From positions 1 through 52,371 of IMG/VR virus record IMGVR_UViG_3300033402_000479: DNA of 52,371 nucleotides. One strand, 5' to 3'. Source of the DNA: a virus. Lineage: Duplodnaviria; Caudoviricetes. The notes under the pieces were generated by a model. The model did no database searches and was not told the DNA's origin. It saw only the letters and a program-made list of their open reading frames with translations. Positions 107 through 52,265 of the stretch are shown here, piece by piece. Every line of letters begins with the position of its first letter. Position 1 is the stretch's first letter. A program made the position numbers and the translations under genes.

Positions 107-127
107 TGGTGGCGGGAGTGGGGGTCG
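107..127. repeat. att core (left copy), 21-bp direct repeat of the tRNA-Leu 3' end
   Basis: TGGTGGCGGGAGTGGGGGTCG is identical to 52245-52265. Confidence 0.95.
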
Positions 128-258
128 GAATCCTGCGGGGCGCTGATTCCATGCAAGTTGTTGATTCTCCGATTCGCGCGATGCCGATGATTCGCTCCGT
201 TGGCGGGTTCTCTGTACAAAATCGTGTACAGGGCGTTTGGTGATACTCTGGCAGTTTA

Positions 259-1863
259 ATGAACCGCCTCTACTACGGCGACAACCTGAGCGTTCTGCGC
301 GGGTGCATTGACGACGAGAGCGTGGATCTCATCTACCTCGACCCTCCATTCAACAGCCGTCAGGACTACAATGTCCTCTTTCGTGGGAACACCGGCGAGC
401 AGTCGCGCGCACAAATCCAGGCGTTCGACGACACCTGGCACTGGGGCGACGAAGCGGAGTTGGCGTTCGACGGCGTGATGACAAGCCAAAACTCGGACGC
501 GGCGGAGATGCTGCGCTCGATGCGGTCGTTCCTGAAGGAAAACGACATGATGGCGTATCTTGCCATGATGGCGGTGCGCCTCGTGGAACTGCACCGGGTT
601 CTCAAGGGAACGGGAAGCCTGTATCTACACTGCGACCCGACGGCTTCGCACTATCTGAAAATCCTCATGGACGCCATCTTCGGGCCGGAGAATTTTAGGA
701 ACGAAATAATCTGGAAACGCACGTCGTCCCACGCGAACGTCATCCAGAAGTTCGGCGCCGTCCACGACGTGATTTTCTTCTACGGAAAGTCGGATACTTT
801 CACGTGGAACCAGCAGTATTCGCCTTACACACCGGAGTACGTCGAAACGTTCTTTGACCAGGCCGACGAGGAGGGAAGACGCTACTTCCGGCGCGACCTC
901 ACGGCCTCGATGTCGAGGGCTTCGACGGGACAGCTGTACGAATGGCACGGAGTGAAACCGCCACCATCGAGATGCTGGGCGATGGCGAAAGAGAAGATGG
1001 ACGAGCTTGAGAAGGCAGGACGAATCCATTGGCCGAAAAAAGAAGGTGGCATGCCGCGGCTGAAGATGTATCCCGAGGATTCGCCCGGCGTGCCGATTCA
1101 AGACATCTGGACGGACATCGGGACGATGCACAACCTCTCTTCGGAGCGGCTTGGCTATCCGACCCAGAAACCGCTCTCGCTTCTGGGACGCATCATCGTT
1201 TCAAGCTCGAACGAAGGCGACGTAGTCCTTGACCCGTTCTGCGGATGCGGGACGACCATCCATGCGGCGCAACGGCTGAAAAGGGAATGGATCGGCATCG
1301 ATGTCACACACCTGGCCATATCCCTCATCGAAAAACGGCTGAAGGACGCGTTTCCGGGCATCAAATATGAGGTCCACGGCACGCCCAAAGACTTGGAGGG
1401 GGCGCGCGACCTGGCGGAACGGGACAAATATCAGTTCCAATGGTGGGCGGTGTCGCTCGTGAACGCGGTTCCGTTCGCCGGCAAAAAGAAGGGCGCGGAT
1501 TCCGGCATCGACGGTCTCATCTACTTCAAGCCGGACGGCAAGACGACAGAGAAAGCCATCGTCTCGGTGAAGGGCGGTGAGAATGTCAATGTCGCCATGG
1601 TCAGAGACCTGGCGCATGTCGTTGACCGTGAGAAGGCGAAGATTGGCATCTTCATCACGCTCGCGGAACCCACCGGGCCGATGAAAACCGAAGCGGTGAA
1701 GACTGGATATTACGAGGCGCGATATGGGAAGTATCCCAAGGTGCAGATTCTGACTATACGGGAGCTTTTCGACGGAAAGCAACCAAACATCCCGTTGATC
1801 GACTCGGCGAGTTTCAAGAAGGCCGCGAAGGAGAAGGTTGGCGAGCAAGACATCCTTTTTTGA
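259..1863 (+). CDS. Site-specific DNA methyltransferase (N4/N6, beta class) with C-terminal Mrr-like nuclease domain
   Basis: LIYLDPPF motif IV, YPTQKP, VLDPFCGCGTT motif I; C-terminal DSGIDG..IVSVKGG. Confidence 0.9.
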   Translation: MNRLYYGDNLSVLRGCIDDESVDLIYLDPPFNSRQDYNVLFRGNTGEQSRAQIQAFDDTWHWGDEAELAFDGVMTSQNSDAAEMLRSMRSFLKENDMMAYLAMMAVRLVELHRVLKGTGSLYLHCDPTASHYLKILMDAIFGPENFRNEIIWKRTSSHANVIQKFGAVHDVIFFYGKSDTFTWNQQYSPYTPEYVETFFDQADEEGRRYFRRDLTASMSRASTGQLYEWHGVKPPPSRCWAMAKEKMDELEKAGRIHWPKKEGGMPRLKMYPEDSPGVPIQDIWTDIGTMHNLSSERLGYPTQKPLSLLGRIIVSSSNEGDVVLDPFCGCGTTIHAAQRLKREWIGIDVTHLAISLIEKRLKDAFPGIKYEVHGTPKDLEGARDLAERDKYQFQWWAVSLVNAVPFAGKKKGADSGIDGLIYFKPDGKTTEKAIVSVKGGENVNVAMVRDLAHVVDREKAKIGIFITLAEPTGPMKTEAVKTGYYEARYGKYPKVQILTIRELFDGKQPNIPLIDSASFKKAAKEKVGEQDILF

Positions 1864-2086
1864 CGGTTTTCACTTTTTTCCGGCGAAAATACTCCCTTAT
1901 AGGGAAGAATCGGGGAAAGAGAAAAATACTTGTTGTTATTAGCTCTGGGGATAACCGGGCGTTCTCGGGTTGGAAGCCCCGTCTTCTTTGGGTTTCCACA
2001 TGTGGACAAGGTGTGCGTTCGCTGCGGTAAGGTGTGCGTAACCCGAAACCTTGACGGACGTTGTAGTGTGTGAGCTAGCAGAAAAC

Positions 2087-2130
2087 AAAACCGACGGGTT
2101 TGTACCGCAGACCGAAAGGCGCGGTTTTTT
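2087..2130 (-). terminator. Probable intrinsic terminator after the minus-strand gene 2129-2635
   Basis: AAAACCG/CGGTTTT outer stem with inner GGTTTG/CAGACC stem, followed on the minus strand by TTTTGTTTT. Confidence 0.55.
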
Positions 2131-50434: not shown

Positions 50435-50673
50435 CTTCGGCCTCCGTTCGTGAACGCCGCGAAGACCTGAAGAACCAGCGACTCGGGGACGAGCCAGATG
50501 GTGTAGCTCCGCCTTTGGGGGTTGGGTTTGGTTATCTTGATGACGCCGGGCAACGACATGAACATGCGGCGCACGCTGTCGTAGCTGATGGGATATCTCC
50601 GCGCGATCTGGCGGAGACGGAGGTATTTGACCGGCGATTGAAGGACCGGTTGCGTTTGCGTGGGGAAGGACAT
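50431..50673 (-). CDS. Excisionase-like HTH protein
   Basis: QIARRY.IS.DSVRRMF..PGV..RRSY..VPES; next to the integrase. Confidence 0.7.
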   Translation of the reverse strand: MSFPTQTQPVLQSPVKYLRLRQIARRYPISYDSVRRMFMSLPGVIKITKPNPQRRSYTIWLVPESLVLQVFAAFTNGGRR

Positions 50674-50989
50674 CGCTGTCTCCCCCTGCTTTTTCTGCCC
50701 GGCACGCGCAGGTCGTCGCACCGCAGGTTTCAGAGGCTAGTCTACCTGCCTAGGACGAAGCGTGAGCGGCTCCCGTCTGATGAGATCCGAAATCTGCCCT
50801 TCCTTCTCCCAAGCGATGCCAAACCAAAACCTAAATCGAAAAGCTCAAACGGCGGGTGTCGGGCCCGCAAAAACATTAGGAGAGTACCGAACCGAAGCTC
50901 CTATGGTCTCCGGTTTCCGTCTATGCTCCGACTTTAACAGATTCGGAGAATCGGATGCAATGGGCGGATTACGGGAACATTTGCAGGAT

Positions 50990-52057
50990 TTATTTGACCC
51001 GTACGAGCTTCGGTTCCCACGTCTTTTCCATGAATGCGTCAAGGCGCTGTTGCCTTGCTGGAATCCACTGGGAATAGTGCTTCACGACGATGGCGGGACT
51101 GTTCCCCAAGACGGCCGCCACGTCCTCAACGCTCGCGCCCTTCATCAGGAGGTCGGCCGCCAGAGTGTGCCGGAACCGGTGCGGATGGTCGGGCGAGACC
51201 CCCGCGGCTTTGCACATCCGCTTGATGGTGCGGCGCCAGAGTTCGGTCAACGTGTGGACGTTCAGGGATTCGCCCCGGAGGAAGAAATACCCGCCGTGGG
51301 GCGGGAGTTTCTTGAGGAGCGAAACCAGTGTCTCGGGAATCAGGATTGAGACCGGCGTTCCCGCCTTAGTCGTGCGGAGATGGATTCGATTTTCGCCGAA
51401 AGAACCTGTGCGCAACACGACAACGTCTCCAATTCGGAGTCCAGTGTGTCGTAGGACAAGGACGAAGGCTAGCTCTCGGTCCGTCTTCGCCTGGGCGATG
51501 ATTTTCTGGACTTCTTTTTCATCGAAGGGGAGTCGGGGAAGGGTCTTTACCTGCGGCGCTTTGATGCCTTGCGCGGGGCTCTTTTGGAGCCAGCCGTTCG
51601 AGACGCAGAAGTTGAAGAACGCGCGGATGCGTTCGAGCTCCTTGGCGGCGGTGCGAGGAGCAAGTGTACGCAGCTCCCGAAATGCTCTAACTTCATCAGC
51701 CGCCAATCCGGCAAGCAGAGCGATATTACGCTGTCGAGCGAACTCGGAAATTCTGCTTCGTAGCAGTCTGTATTTGCGTAGCGTCGAAGGATGAAGGTTG
51801 CGGGCAGCGCAGTCGGCGACGAACGCGTCGAGCGCCTTTTGGACGGTGATGATTTTCGGTTGTGGTTGGTCCTGTTTTCCATCTTCGATGTCGCGTTTTA
51901 TCTTCTCGGCGGCCTCCCAGCTCCGGGTCTTCGCGGACTTCCGGTAGGGTTCTCCGAACAGGGTTCCCGTGAGCCACAGGTTGCACCGGCACTTCTTCGA
52001 CGAGCGGTCGGCGGCGAATTTGCAGTTTGCTTTGTGCCGGCGGTAGATCGTGAGCAC
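50990..52057 (-). CDS. int: Tyrosine integrase
   Basis: TGLRIGD, TTKAG, HPHRFRHT, LGNS, KHY; GTG start with GGAGG SD. Confidence 0.95.
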   Translation of the reverse strand: MLTIYRRHKANCKFAADRSSKKCRCNLWLTGTLFGEPYRKSAKTRSWEAAEKIKRDIEDGKQDQPQPKIITVQKALDAFVADCAARNLHPSTLRKYRLLRSRISEFARQRNIALLAGLAADEVRAFRELRTLAPRTAAKELERIRAFFNFCVSNGWLQKSPAQGIKAPQVKTLPRLPFDEKEVQKIIAQAKTDRELAFVLVLRHTGLRIGDVVVLRTGSFGENRIHLRTTKAGTPVSILIPETLVSLLKKLPPHGGYFFLRGESLNVHTLTELWRRTIKRMCKAAGVSPDHPHRFRHTLAADLLMKGASVEDVAAVLGNSPAIVVKHYSQWIPARQQRLDAFMEKTWEPKLVRVK

Positions 52058-52244
52058 GTTGCCTCCGTGATTCGCTGATGGCGGGCGGGAGGGCTTGTCC
52101 TCCATAAGCTCGGACGCTTCCACTGGCCGTCGCCAGATTCGCGTTCCCGCGCCCCATCAAAGAACCACTGACCTAACTCTAGGACGAAACCGTGTACACG
52201 TCAATTCGCAGGATTTGAAGTGGTTGATTCAAAACGAGATATGT

Positions 52245-52265
52245 TGGTGGCGGGAGTGGGGGTCG
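52245..52265. repeat. att core (right copy) within the tRNA 3' end
   Basis: Identical to 107-127. Confidence 0.95.

Follow-up and report, generated by a model that had tools for sequence, protein, structure and literature searches.

Does a temperate phage that also carries plasmid-type DNA-transfer genes hold two elements in one site or a single genome, and could such a genome spread both as virions and by DNA transfer through a type IV secretion system (T4SS)? The question is raised by a viral stretch of 52,371 nucleotides (IMG/VR record IMGVR_UViG_3300033402_000479; hereafter the window, meaning the whole stretch), for which both routes of spread had been proposed.

One siphophage integrated in a tRNA-Leu gene

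The window contains a single and complete temperate phage, an HK97-type siphophage whose hosts are Acidobacteriaceae and which sits in a tRNA-Leu gene; its host setting is the Acidobacteria of peat soil. Two exact copies of the 21-mer TGGTGGCGGGAGTGGGGGTCG bound the element (Table 1). No further copy with up to two mismatches occurs within the window (100 shuffles gave 0 matches), and searching the window with the 17-nt att core at up to three mismatches returns the same two sites only. The empty attB is present in peat-metagenome contigs from runs X2 and X4, where window positions 77–106 abut 52245, and run X1 has the same junction as a 9-nt stub. Among 50 ORF translations scanned with Pfam (E ≤ 0.01) there is a single Phage_integrase ORF, no second recombinase and no VirB4- or VirB6-type family, bearing out the original prediction of one integrase and one att pair with neither an internal att nor mating-pair genes. 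The small basic ORF adjoining the integrase has no family match; its homologues (32–36% identity) stand upstream of ATPase1 in two related loci (L013 and L016).

Portal, capsid, tail tube and TerL uphold the morphogenesis half of the predicted virion and lysis set, and Pfam adds a gp6-like connector and, below its cut-off, a gp10-like protein. The lysis half stays putative: the candidates are a sub-threshold Peptidase_C39_2 match (ORF 4431–5288) and a hydrophobic, two-helix ORF of 81 aa (4028–4273), and the ORFs at 4028–5288 have no match in the PDB or the phage database. At the attL side, the methyltransferase fusion matches N6_N4_Mtase (1.3e-42), Mrr_cat (7.8e-8) and PADLOC MTase_II (5.7e-75). 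The DUF932 gene is retained in related phages and in a phage-free island.

Table 1. Features of the window, in order of position.
Feature	Position	Strand	Evidence or remarks
attL core, 21-nt exact direct repeat	107–127	n/a	Metagenome contigs join 77–106 to 52245 onward
DNA methyltransferase fused to Mrr/REase-like domain	259–1863	plus	Adjoins attL
DUF932 protein	3161–3883	minus	PF06067 2.4e-7
Presumed lysis genes	4028–5288	minus	By position only
Packaging and virion module	5783–30783	minus	TerL, portal-MuF, capsid, connector, gp10-like, tail tube, distal tail
Tail tube	12466–13467	minus	5.5e-13
HK97-type capsid	16433–17734	minus	1.1e-19
GDSL/glycine-rich protein	22721–25432	minus	
Portal-MuF	25888–28290	minus	Portal plus MuF 1.1e-56
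TerL	28722–30221	minus	25–28% identity to annotated large terminases
Early recombination/replication genes	33193–39900	minus	RecT, YqaJ exonuclease, YopX, SSB, DUF1064, unknowns
Low-GC divergent control region	39901–41378	n/a	Composition and repeats
80-aa HTH ORF inside control region	40901–41143	minus	HTH_23 1.2e-4, below cut-off
DnaG-type primase	41379–42398	plus	CHC2 zinc finger and Toprim, no helicase domain
189-aa membrane protein	42849–43418	minus	Hydropathy 2.32 at residue 52
ParB-family protein	43426–44793	minus	ParB_N and HTH_ParB
93-aa Cys-rich, zinc-ribbon-like protein	44827–45108	minus	Sub-threshold matches only
88-aa RHAHGDWG protein	45208–45474	minus	Motif
Long imperfect hairpin	45505–45690	minus	In 640-nt gap, ATPase2 to RHxxGDWG gene
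ATPase2	46118–47362	minus	Soluble TrwB-fold (type IV coupling protein-like), no membrane domain
Divergent Replic_Relax (MOBC-type) protein	47551–48414	minus	N-terminal wHTH-like and PD-(D/E)XK-like nuclease part
ATPase1	48347–49813	minus	Divergent soluble P-loop ATPase
Non-coding repeat/hairpin region	49830–50080	minus	Upstream of ATPase1
117-aa protein	50081–50434	minus	N-terminal hydrophobic helix and poly-proline tract; hydropathy maximum 2.06 at residue 1
Small basic ORF adjoining int	50431–50721	minus	Possible excisionase by position only
Tyrosine integrase	50990–52123	minus	Phage_integrase 6e-16 and Phage_int_SAM_5
attR core	52245–52265		3' 21 nt of tRNA-Leu(taa)
tRNA-Leu(taa)	52245–52333	minus	ARAGORN; Rfam tRNA 56 bits

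Two ATPases and a divergent nuclease

Two VirD4/TraD-like ATPases had been predicted, an assignment that holds for ATPase2 and only weakly for ATPase1. ATPase2 exceeds the Pfam cut-offs for TrwB_AAD_bind (24.4 bits, cut-off 20.5) and TraG-D_C (23.3 bits, cut-off 22) and matches phrog_5156 (3e-34). Its structural model (pLDDT 89.9) ranks TrwB first in Foldseek (E 7.6e-14, TMq 0.64–0.66) and Cagbeta next (TMq 0.68), with DndH-C, HerA and VirB4 behind, and both Walker A and Walker B are invariant across 27 homologues. A tblastn search with ATPase2 gave only two phage matches, gp156 of Bacillus phage G and a single Brevibacillus phage record. ATPase1 appears from profile comparison to be a distant, weakly type IV coupling protein (T4CP)-like paralogue of ATPase2 (hhalign probability 68%, E 4.7e-5, 277 columns; phrog_5156 1.5e-4); its low-confidence model (pLDDT 58) ranks TrwB and DotL first at TM <0.5, and hydropathy shows no TM segment. 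The overlapping frame 48411–49823 was rejected as ATPase1 because GC3 (0.81) favours 48347–49813.

Replic_Relax membership is carried by the relatives of the nuclease rather than by its own ORF, which has no PF13814 match even at E ≤ 5. The family is present in homologues P0126 and P0128 and lies above its cut-off of 25.3 in positional orthologues from 4 of 10 records (29.6–43.4 bits), and comparison with Replic_Relax clusters in the Atlas gives 0.95 for features and a structural TM of 0.73. Nuclease sequences share the catalytic-type residues H-[DE], PD and E without exception (16/16); where the (D/E)XK motif should have its lysine, another residue stands (EYQ in the window). BLAST with the window's nuclease found no relative among 72,556 plasmids and 50,697 phage records. 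Translation probably starts ~28 codons downstream of the annotated ORF start.

Profile scans also recover the predicted ParB, CHC2–Toprim primase and DUF932 protein. The ParB matches a PRTRC-type model (3.3e-42, below that model's cut-off) and PHROG ParB-like families; no ParA partner was found for it. The neighbouring 189-aa protein has no family match in Pfam or PHROG, and the 117-aa protein is possibly a membrane anchor. An RHxxGDWG protein, likewise expected, is present: RHAHGDWG forms residues 121–128 of a longer ORF (45208–45747) that is probably not coding throughout. It matches no Pfam, PHROG or NCBIfam family, and its nearest Atlas clusters are unnamed, ~90 aa and mostly phage. The hairpin in the adjoining gap is more stable than its shuffled counterparts (MFE −118.9 versus −83.2 kcal/mol, z −8.1); it is not conserved in relatives and belongs to no Rfam family.

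The block is a conserved part of the phage genome

In five relatives (G004, G005, G009, G012 and G013) ATPase2, nuclease and primase keep their synteny with TerL, portal, capsid and tail, and in these, as in G226, the virion module is retained at 50–78% identity. In G004 and G013 the integrase lies at the opposite end of the record, the position of the block being unchanged. G226, the closest relative, was found through its TerL (74% identity) and ends in a 41-bp terminal repeat, so that it assembles as a circle of 51,648 bp, with both modules inside and the order int–ATPase1–nuclease–ATPase2–primase. Block and virion module stand together in at least six diverged phages and two MAG prophages. 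Of 13 viral records with ATPase2, 5 also have TerL (3/3 among those at least 90% complete). Linkage of the two modules in relatives, and their presence in one DNA molecule, is as the original prediction had it. The transfer-type block is a conserved part of the phage genome, and we reject its description as a 'mobilizable element' inside a phage because it is conserved with TerL, portal and capsid.

A conserved repeat site upstream of the operon

New here is a conserved same-strand CTATCG repeat cluster with hairpins upstream of the operon. In the window, five such copies (plus-strand CGATAG at 49876, 49891, 49928, 49937 and 50071) span 196 nt (cluster P ~2e-7 after correction), among inverted repeats with 22-nt arms at 49901–49922 and 49944–49965. 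Of 25 related loci, 13 have a same-strand cluster upstream of the operon, which makes 13/21 if only loci whose upstream sequence reaches 2.6 kb or more are counted; antisense or downstream clusters occur in none of the 25. The region is a candidate oriT, ori or operator. It resembles the pAD1 oriT, where TraX, a studied MOBC relaxase with an N-terminal winged helix, is described as binding five direct repeats 70–120 bp from nic (PMC12857230).

The module also forms phage-free islands

G019 has a 27.2-kb island that is bounded by 22-nt repeats and lies at a tmRNA gene. Besides an integrase, restriction/helicase cargo and a cI-like repressor, the island encodes ParB, DUF932 and a primase finger, together with ATPase2 (63% identity), the nuclease and an ATPase1-like gene. 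Virion genes are absent from it, there is no room for a virion module, and neither portal nor capsid lies near it in the complete chromosome. In a second island an ArdC-like gene adjoins the module. The module is a mobile backbone common to phages and phage-free islands and, as the same gene set forms both, may spread by cell contact besides virions.

Transfer, replication and other readings

A T4CP-like ATPase together with a MOBC-type protein is, much as had been asserted for coupling ATPase and relaxase, a recognised mobilisation signature, described for CloDF13 and streptococcal IME class 8; in IMEs the partners of MOBC relaxases are coupling proteins of the VirD4 type (PMC5357655). Our preferred reading, held tentatively and with somewhat less than even confidence, is of a temperate siphophage with an integral conjugation-type DNA-processing module, spreading as virions and possibly by a T4SS in trans. 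The module comprises the repeat/hairpin site (49.83–50.08 kb), the divergent soluble ATPase, the winged-helix Replic_Relax/MOBC-type nuclease, the TrwB-fold ATPase without membrane anchor and the convergent primase, with ParB and DUF932 nearby. The nuclease would bind the CTATCG repeats and nick nearby, the two ATPases would act as motor or adaptor handing nicked DNA to the T4SS channel of another element, and the primase would prime the complementary strand. In this way cell contact could move either excised phage DNA or the phage-free islands, and the phage would spread as virions too.

Use of a T4SS in trans is plausible. VirB4 occurs elsewhere in 6 of 12 carrier genomes, never adjoining the module. 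Against transfer count its not being found in the other six, including the complete G019 chromosome, its presence in just 19 of 151 sampled genomes of the same family, and an enrichment in carriers that is not significant (4/12 versus 19/151, P=0.069). Also on that side, 115 of 125 plasmids with distant ATPase2 homologues are typed non-mobilizable, and both ATPases are without the N-terminal membrane domain of most coupling proteins. The missing PF13814 match and replaced lysine of the window's nuclease, and the weak evidence on ATPase1, weigh the same way.

We consider it rather unlikely, though well worth weighing, that the module is the replication module of phage and islands, with no cell-to-cell transfer. 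Replic_Relax would then bind the origin at the CTATCG iterons and nick it as initiator, the ring ATPases would be a loader or translocase, and the primase would start the lagging or complementary strand. The primase is convergent with the ATPase operon, and in 22 of 25 related loci ATPase2 has a convergent primase homologue after it, a linkage that fits replication equally well. By HMM, a CHC2 primase is present in 4/7 module-bearing records versus 0/9 module-less TerL relatives; DnaB_C is in none of the 16, and the window has no other recognisable initiator. PF13814 was itself founded on a relaxation protein and a plasmid replication protein, and two Stx phages, Eru6 and Eru13, encode a member among their replication genes (PMC8951638, PMC3424549). 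Islands keeping the module would need replication after excision. Short direct repeats beside hairpins are typical of origins too. Against replication, two coupling-fold ATPases are retained, and no ATPase of this fold is known to serve as a replicative helicase; the ArdC beside the module in one island is of a kind typical of transferred DNA, and module-less phages with related TerL manage with genomes of 32–38 kb. The analogous operon of Bacillus phage 0305phi8-36 is, moreover, reported to be deletable with no effect on lytic growth (PMC3357382).

That the ATPase–nuclease–ATPase triad is a prophage defence or exclusion system (anti-phage or anti-plasmid), cutting or expelling foreign DNA, seems to us improbable. 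PADLOC mad8 matches ATPase2 (3e-14) and ATPase1 (2.6e-6), but no other MADS component was found by PADLOC; DndH-C and HerA defence complexes are among the fold neighbours, but T4CPs rank above them. The block adjoins the integrase, a common place for prophage accessory genes, islands carry restriction/helicase cargo, and on a Bradyrhizobium plasmid CHAT-domain genes surround a distant ATPase2 homologue. Yet both in phages and in islands the triad keeps its synteny with the primase and with the conserved array of cis repeats, which points to action on the element's own DNA. Defence loci, besides, usually differ from one close relative to the next, whereas the conservation of ATPase2 is about that of the capsid.

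That the module is left over from an old plasmid or ICE capture, decaying and without present function, is very improbable: low identities between relatives (nuclease 22–42%, ATPase1 25–32%) and the replaced lysine would suit this, but each of the three genes has an open frame in the window and in the relatives examined, save a broken ATPase2 in G025, the Walker motifs and nuclease acidic residues are invariant, and the cis repeats are conserved. Although the module stands alone in islands, ATPase2 occurs in only 1 of 25 TerL-selected viral records and module-bearing phages are ~13–15 kb longer than complete module-less ones, we can hardly credit an accidental or recent linkage in one site of a mobilizable island beside or inside an unrelated prophage, given the one integrase and att pair without internal core, an empty site lacking the entire 52 kb at once, the recurrence in diverged phages, the circular G226 and an integrase cassette that shifts while the block stays.

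Relation to known systems

The transfer idea is not new, since propagation by translocation was proposed in 2012 for the MobC-like/VirD4-like operon of Bacillus phages: the 'DNA translocation operon' of 0305phi8-36 is described as encoding a MobC-like relaxase (orf200) and a TM-less VirD4/TraG-like ATPase (orf201), with homologues in SPO1, GBSV1 and the temperate Gamma, Wbeta, Cherry and Fah phages (Pathria et al. 2012, PMC3357382). Phage operons of a MobC-like relaxase and a TM-less coupling ATPase have thus been known since then. By that account, operon and window share a CloDF13-MobC-type nuclease with an HTH front, an adjoining coupling-type ATPase without membrane domain, small separate membrane proteins nearby and no other relaxase family, and in the temperate Bacillus phages the operon also stands beside integration genes, a likeness to orf200/201 drawn from descriptions of the operon. 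Unlike 0305phi8-36, the window has a diderm acidobacterial host rather than one of the Bacillota, two ATPases rather than one, a linked convergent primase and ParB with a conserved CTATCG site, and a module that occurs also as phage-free islands.

In CloDF13 MobB/MobC and pAD1 TraX, a MOBC relaxase is described as working with a coupling protein that is either its own or of the VirD4 type (PMC12857230, PMC5357655). In these accounts they share with the window a nuclease that is PD-(D/E)XK-related and begins with a winged helix, an adjoining coupling-type ATPase gene and a site where some five short direct repeats lie close to inverted repeats, and CloDF13 and IME class 8, as described, carry no mating-pore genes either. 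The window differs in a nuclease that fails PF13814 and is without the motif lysine, in ATPases without membrane domain, in being carried by a virion-forming phage and in having a nicking and transfer role that is predicted. Elements integrated at tRNA or tmRNA genes with a relaxase-like/T4CP-like pair also have an integrase and att sites and no VirB4-type gene, and the G019 island, with its defence cargo, fits among them; the window adds a full packaging, head and tail module, and its nuclease and ATPases, unlike those of such elements, are far from curated profiles.

Transjugation by ICEth1/TdtA of Thermus thermophilus is described as DNA donation without a T4SS or canonical relaxase, from a small tRNA-integrated element that likewise has a hexameric FtsK/HerA-superfamily ATPase and restriction-type nucleases (PMC5365140). 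TdtA, however, belongs to another ATPase branch, ATPase2 of the window being nearer TrwB than HerA, and ICEth1 as described is without phage genes or a repeat site of the window's kind. In phage–ICE tandems, two elements with their own att sites reportedly accrete, and phage DNA moves by conjugation. In these, as in ICE-mobilised streptococcal prophages (Huang et al. 2023, as cited in PMC12282955), conjugative movement of phage DNA parallels what we propose for the window; by the accounts available, a separate ICE there gives all transfer functions, whereas here the phage has DNA-processing genes of its own within one att pair.

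Element boundaries and integration site

The window record (IMG/VR, 52,371 bp, CheckV completeness estimate 100%) has a GC content of 54–65% and carries almost all of its genes on the minus strand. The 21-mer TGGTGGCGGGAGTGGGGGTCG is present in exactly two copies, at 107–127 and 52245–52265; no third copy is found in the window at up to two mismatches (0 matches in 100 shuffles), and a search with the 17-nt att core at up to three mismatches returns only the same two sites, with no internal core. The right copy forms the 3′ end of a tRNA-Leu(taa) gene and is adjoined by a tyrosine integrase.

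Contigs from peat metagenomes (runs X1–X4, matched to the window) give independent proof of these boundaries. The empty tRNA locus, with window 77–106 joined straight to 52245, is seen in one contig each from X2 and X4, an X1 contig bears a 9-nt stub of the same left flank before 52245, and a 24.7-kb contig of lower depth spans the window from about 27.5 kb to 52274. Contig depth in X1 and X2 is 11–12 for the prophage and 45–60 for flank and empty-site contigs, a difference of about 4–5× which, the runs being contigs, does not read as a share of lysogens or cells. The window record may derive from the samples behind X1 and X2. We left out of the evidence two X4 'skips' with sides of 20–21 letters, X4 bins without cover and run X6 (share 0.22). 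The original prediction of one att pair bounding the whole unit is thus borne out by the exact 21-nt repeat and the empty-site contigs; likewise, we find a single integrase and no internal att (no second recombinase among 50 ORFs and no further core copy) and, as had been claimed, no mating-pair (VirB4/VirB6) family among the 50 ORF translations scanned with Pfam.

Across window 32372–52371, many loose ends of single contigs recur at fixed sites (among them 39554, 43218, 46099 and 37682) in several of runs X1–X4. It seems that related phages in this peat community have segments in common, ATPase2 being one, and diverge at sharp mosaic joints.

Phage gene content

Our Pfam scan used 50 ORF translations, one of which was in the wrong frame (codon-position GC) and was discarded. 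The virion side comprises a portal fused to a MuF domain (1.1e-56), an HK97-type capsid (1.1e-19), a tail tube (5.5e-13), a gp6-like connector and, below threshold, a gp10-like protein. No tail sheath family is seen among the ORFs scanned. Early genes include RecT, a YqaJ exonuclease, YopX, SSB and DUF1064. With TerL, portal, capsid, tail tube and integrase/att all present, the window is a temperate tailed phage of HK97 fold and siphovirus type. The integrase/att system is present despite a MuF-fused portal and a terminase most like those of Pseudomonas, Klebsiella and Mannheimia phage records 34–37 kb long, and no transposase was found in the window. A full HK97/siphovirus morphogenesis and lysis set had been predicted; its head, tail and terminase genes are identified, but its lysis genes are presumed from position only. 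For one of these, ORF 4431–5288, phmmer gave no useful match to PDB sequences and none in the phage collection; TerL likewise had no useful phmmer match to PDB sequences.

Features of the window and of the island in G019, a complete chromosome that carries the module
Feature	Position	Strand	Evidence or content
Portal-MuF	25888–28290	minus	Pfam
Large terminase (TerL)	28722–30221	minus	25–28% identity to annotated Pseudomonas, Klebsiella and Mannheimia phage terminases
ATPase2	46118–47362	minus	Above Pfam cut-offs of TrwB_AAD_bind and TraG-D_C
Nuclease ORF	47551–48414	minus	Between the two ATPases
ATPase1	48347–49813	minus	Distant paralogue of ATPase2
Tyrosine integrase	50990–52123		Adjoins right att copy
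G019 island, cargo	Between 22-nt repeats		Integrase, methylase-like stretch, ResIII helicase, RhuM-family gene, SNF2 helicase
G019 island, control/partition genes	Between 22-nt repeats		cI-type repressor, ParB, DUF932
G019 island, module			CHC2 primase finger, ATPase2 (63% identical), 274-aa nuclease homologue
G019 island, second ATPase			413 aa, weak TrwB match

Directly inside attL, on the plus strand (259–1863), lies a DNA methyltransferase fused to a C-terminal Mrr/NA-iREase1-type domain, which together with the primase makes up the only large plus-strand genes. The fusion may act as a restriction–modification enzyme in a single chain, or it may be an orphan methylase whose nuclease domain is dead. 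Two large ORFs, poorly conserved in relatives, separate the portal from the capsid region (21022–25432, minus strand): the first (903 aa) has a GDSL lipase and an ALK/LTK-type glycine-rich domain, and the second (595 aa) has no family and contains internal 103-nt repeats.

Two ATPases and a MOBC-like nuclease

Two VirD4/TraD-like ATPases had been predicted, and ATPase2 fits that description in fold, motifs and Pfam families. It matches phrog_5156, a phage protein family without assigned function (3e-34), and an AlphaFold model built with 27 homologues as input (pLDDT 89.9) retrieves TrwB from the PDB with Foldseek (E 7.6e-14, TMq 0.64–0.66, about 425 columns) and Cagbeta (TMq 0.68), both ranking ahead of DndH-C, HerA and VirB4. 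The Walker residues G27, G29, K30, D268 and E269 are invariant in the 27 homologues, and in the model helices 94–217 sit between Walker A and Walker B as a TrwB-like all-alpha insertion. ATPase1 matches more weakly. It aligns with the ATPase2 family in hhalign (probability 68%, E 4.7e-5, 277 columns), has the Walker motifs GATGMGKS and DLDE, and finds phrog_5156 and mad8 (the MADS defence ATPase) as weak matches; in a low-confidence model (pLDDT 58) TrwB and DotL rank first at TM below 0.5, a hint only. Both proteins lack the N-terminal membrane domain of most coupling proteins: Walker A begins at residue 26 in ATPase2 and residue 23 in ATPase1, and neither has a hydrophobic N-terminal segment. 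Relatives without transmembrane segments are reported (PMC3357382).

The ORF between them had been called Replic_Relax. Its own sequence is below detection by PF13814 (no match at E ≤ 5, and none in a six-frame search of the window record), and tblastn against 72,556 plasmid and 50,697 phage records returned nothing. Other evidence does place it, as a putative member, in this family, because two homologues at 45–46% identity carry PF13814, genes at the same position upstream of ATPase2 in related phages score 29.6–43.4 bits (cut-off 25.3; 4 of 9 related records, or 4 of 10 when the window is counted), and Atlas clusters match. Residues 11–284 of the Atlas model (pTM 0.74) align at TM 0.73 with a cluster that is 91% PF13814, and the feature score to two Replic_Relax clusters is 0.95. 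The modelled fold is predicted to combine a winged-helix N terminus with a PD-(D/E)XK-type C terminus. All 16 aligned sequences share H-[DE], PD and E; at the place of the motif lysine the window's subgroup has Q, A or T (EYQ for the window itself), and the orthologues that match PF13814 have E-x-E-R-x-K. In CONJscan the MOBC relaxases are represented by PF13814, which accompanies VirD4-type coupling proteins in streptococcal IMEs (PMC5357655) and falls within the PD-(D/E)XK superfamily (PMC3424549).

Linkage to virion genes

A search with the single ATPase2 protein found no related locus and an alignment-based search was needed; at E ≤ 0.001 the family numbers 226 relatives in the databases. 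With 27 of these aligned, the search yielded 13 IMG/VR loci and 12 MAG loci, the MAGs being titled Acidobacteriaceae, Granulicella, Terracidiphilus, Acidobacterium, Bryobacteraceae or Terriglobia. For the two best distant matches (Sulfitobacter and Bradyrhizobium), the plasmid neighbourhoods were uninformative. A convergent primase follows ATPase2 in 22 of 25 loci and a nuclease homologue precedes it in 18 of 25, several misses being contig ends; a second ATPase2-like match (22–28% identity) lies 2–5 kb upstream of the ATPase2 gene in 8/12 MAGs. One MAG locus (L051, G018:C95) has a tRNA-Trp gene at about 29171–29244 between nuclease homologue and ATPase2, and in another (L028, G025:C35:6944-8142) the ATPase2 homologue is split into three by TAG and TAA stops, the only decayed copy in the 12 MAGs.

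Relatives do link the virion and plasmid-type modules, as the original prediction required. A TerL about 60% identical to that of the window is found in five of the 13 viral records, including all three at ≥90% completeness; in tblastn maps these five hold nuclease, ATPase2 and primase together with virion genes (ATPase1 in three), with TerL, portal, capsid, connector, tube, tail proteins and DUF932 at 50–78% identity. The integrase of two viral records (G004 and G013; 37% and 34% identical) sits at the opposite record end while the block keeps its place, so the block is not tied to the integrase cassette. Searching by TerL instead, 25 viral records share the terminase and one of them has ATPase2 (1/9 of the complete ones). 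This record, G226, is the closest relative (TerL 74%), and its 41-bp terminal repeat gives a circular assembly of 51,648 bp in the order primase, ATPase2, nuclease, ATPase1, integrase, DUF932, lysis, tail, head, TerL, SSB. A genome with both modules therefore exists in circular form. Complete relatives that lack the module are 32–38 kb long and more distant (TerL 52–58%). A further record without it, G227 (TerL 75%), was not counted as an absence because it ends just after the gene upstream of TerL. Judged from these records, the module is accessory across the wider TerL clade and conserved in the window's own lineage.

Virion-free islands

The same module is also found apart from virion genes. 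Window-type TerL is present in only two of the 12 MAGs, in both cases 11–12 kb from ATPase2. In G019 and in the MAG G023, portal matches are found only hundreds of kb away and there is no HK97 capsid match. A 22-nt repeat of the tmRNA 3′ end in G019 recurs 27.1 kb away, delimiting an island (see table) with no virion genes and no space for a virion module. In the G023 region, ParB, primase, ATPase2 and nuclease are accompanied by a restriction methylase, a transposase, two integrases and an ArdC-like gene; its flanking tRNA-Ser genes are two different genes, so its ends are not set by them. In G018, counterparts of DUF932 and of the putative lysin of the window are 26–28 kb away from the module, and window-type TerL, portal and capsid were not found. 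Within G019's family, the ATPase2 family turned up in only 2 of the 201 genomes sampled, too few for co-occurrence statistics.

A repeat array upstream of ATPase1

The 267-nt gap upstream of ATPase1 contains five same-strand CTATCG copies within 196 nt (corrected probability about 2e-7), along with several inverted repeats and a strongly stable fold. At the corresponding position G226 has six copies, the G019 island four and G018 three. With a threshold of three copies in 250 nt, 13 of the 25 loci (13/21 of those with ≥2.6 kb of upstream sequence) carry a sense-strand cluster upstream of their operon; none has an antisense cluster, or one downstream of ATPase2. The one MOBC relaxase studied, TraX of pAD1, is described as having an N-terminal winged helix, binding five direct repeats 70–120 bp from its nic site and giving no detectable covalent intermediate (PMC12857230). 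The resemblance of the CTATCG array to the TraX site is suggestive, and by this analogy the window array is a candidate oriT. Short repeats beside hairpins also fit replication origins and operators.

What the module may do

Among the features of an IME, integrase and att are present and mating-pair genes absent, with relaxase and oriT as candidates only; the predicted mobilizable-type backbone is to that extent upheld, in an element that is also a complete phage. The proposal that the element spreads both as virions and by T4SS-mediated transfer is partly supported by the comparisons made here, and we adopt it tentatively, a little short of an even chance. Transfer is favoured by the MOBC-plus-coupling-protein signature, by the TraX-like site, by the ArdC neighbour in one island and because virion-free islands need some route of spread. 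It is favoured too by VirB4 genes elsewhere in the genome, away from the element, in 6 of 12 carrier genomes. It is weakened by the distance of the proteins from curated models, by ATPases without a membrane domain, by G019, where VirB4 was not found, and by carriers not significantly enriched for VirB4 at equal thresholds (P=0.069); in G019's family 19 of 151 sampled genomes have VirB4. An enrichment of P=0.0036 was discarded, having compared unequal thresholds.

The module could instead serve replication of the phage and islands rather than transfer. This is argued for by the strict linkage of the primase, by DnaB in 0/16 records with no other recognised initiator, and by the occurrence of PF13814 among the replication genes of certain Stx phages (PMC8951638); we regard it as possible, if on the unlikely side. 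That the triad is a defence system is improbable: fold neighbours and mad8 matches (PADLOC, 3e-14 and 2.6e-6 among 10 proteins scanned) point that way, but the conserved cis site is left unexplained. MADS itself was rejected, no other mad component being present among those 10 proteins. A phage-plasmid was likewise rejected, the element being integrated in tRNA-Leu with an empty-site allele and having ParB but no ParA and no plasmid Rep family (50 ORFs). A chance tandem of two separate elements is excluded for practical purposes by the single att pair, the lack of an internal core, conserved synteny, circular G226 and the empty site.

If transfer occurs, the virion module and an IME-type backbone might form a single replicon in a lineage of temperate phages, leaving the cell either in particles or by conjugation-type transfer. 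The backbone would consist of a repeat-type oriT, a MOBC-like nuclease, a soluble coupling motor of heteromeric make-up, a small membrane protein as its tether and a primase, and the second exit would be through a foreign T4SS or, more radically, by a T4SS-independent push like Thermus transjugation. The backbone alone would make islands, with phage and island as two states of one element family. We consider this fuller scheme doubtful.

The transfer idea is not new. Pathria et al. (2012, PMC3357382) described a 'DNA translocation operon' in phage 0305phi8-36, dispensable in the laboratory, where a CloDF13-MobC-like relaxase adjoins a VirD4/TraG-like ATPase that lacks a membrane domain, and membrane proteins are encoded separately. 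Homologues were listed in SPO1, GBSV1 and the temperate Gamma/Wbeta group, in the last beside integration genes; propagation by translocation was proposed and, by the authors' account, no other relaxase family is present in phages. Bacillus phage papers also list Replic_Relax with FtsK-like genes (PMC9658697, PMC7685451). The window differs from the 0305phi8-36 operon by phylum and in its two ATPases, linked primase, defined conserved repeat site and virion-free islands with the same backbone. It thus adds a variant to a class of operon already described.

If transfer is real, a phage that itself supplies the nicking enzyme, the coupling motor and the site they act on would blur transduction and conjugation, and estimates of host range and spread for soil prophages would change because transfer would no longer depend on a receptor. 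It would also give a testable function to the MobC-like/VirD4-like operons of Bacillus phages, which have lacked an explanation since 2012. The hypothesis now lends itself to concrete tests: the conserved CTATCG array is a concrete handle for binding and nicking assays, and the module is shared with a 27-kb island, so transfer can be assayed without the complication of lysis.

Other genes of the block and a hairpin

Family matches confirm the predicted ParB (nearest to PRTRC-type ParB, below cut-off), the CHC2-Toprim primase on the opposite strand and DUF932. The predicted RHxxGDWG motif is present as RHAHGDWG; its protein has no family, and its nearest Atlas clusters are unnamed and mostly of phage proteins, so it is not evidence of plasmid ancestry. 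The 640-nt gap between ATPase2 and the RHAHGDWG gene holds a near-perfect hairpin of about 185 nt (45505–45690, minus strand; MFE −118.9 kcal/mol, z −8.1), with no Rfam family and no conservation in relatives, whose stable folds 250–470 nt after ATPase2 proved unrelated on alignment and look coding. The hairpin could represent an RNA element, the scar of a recombination event, or a single-strand origin or promoter.
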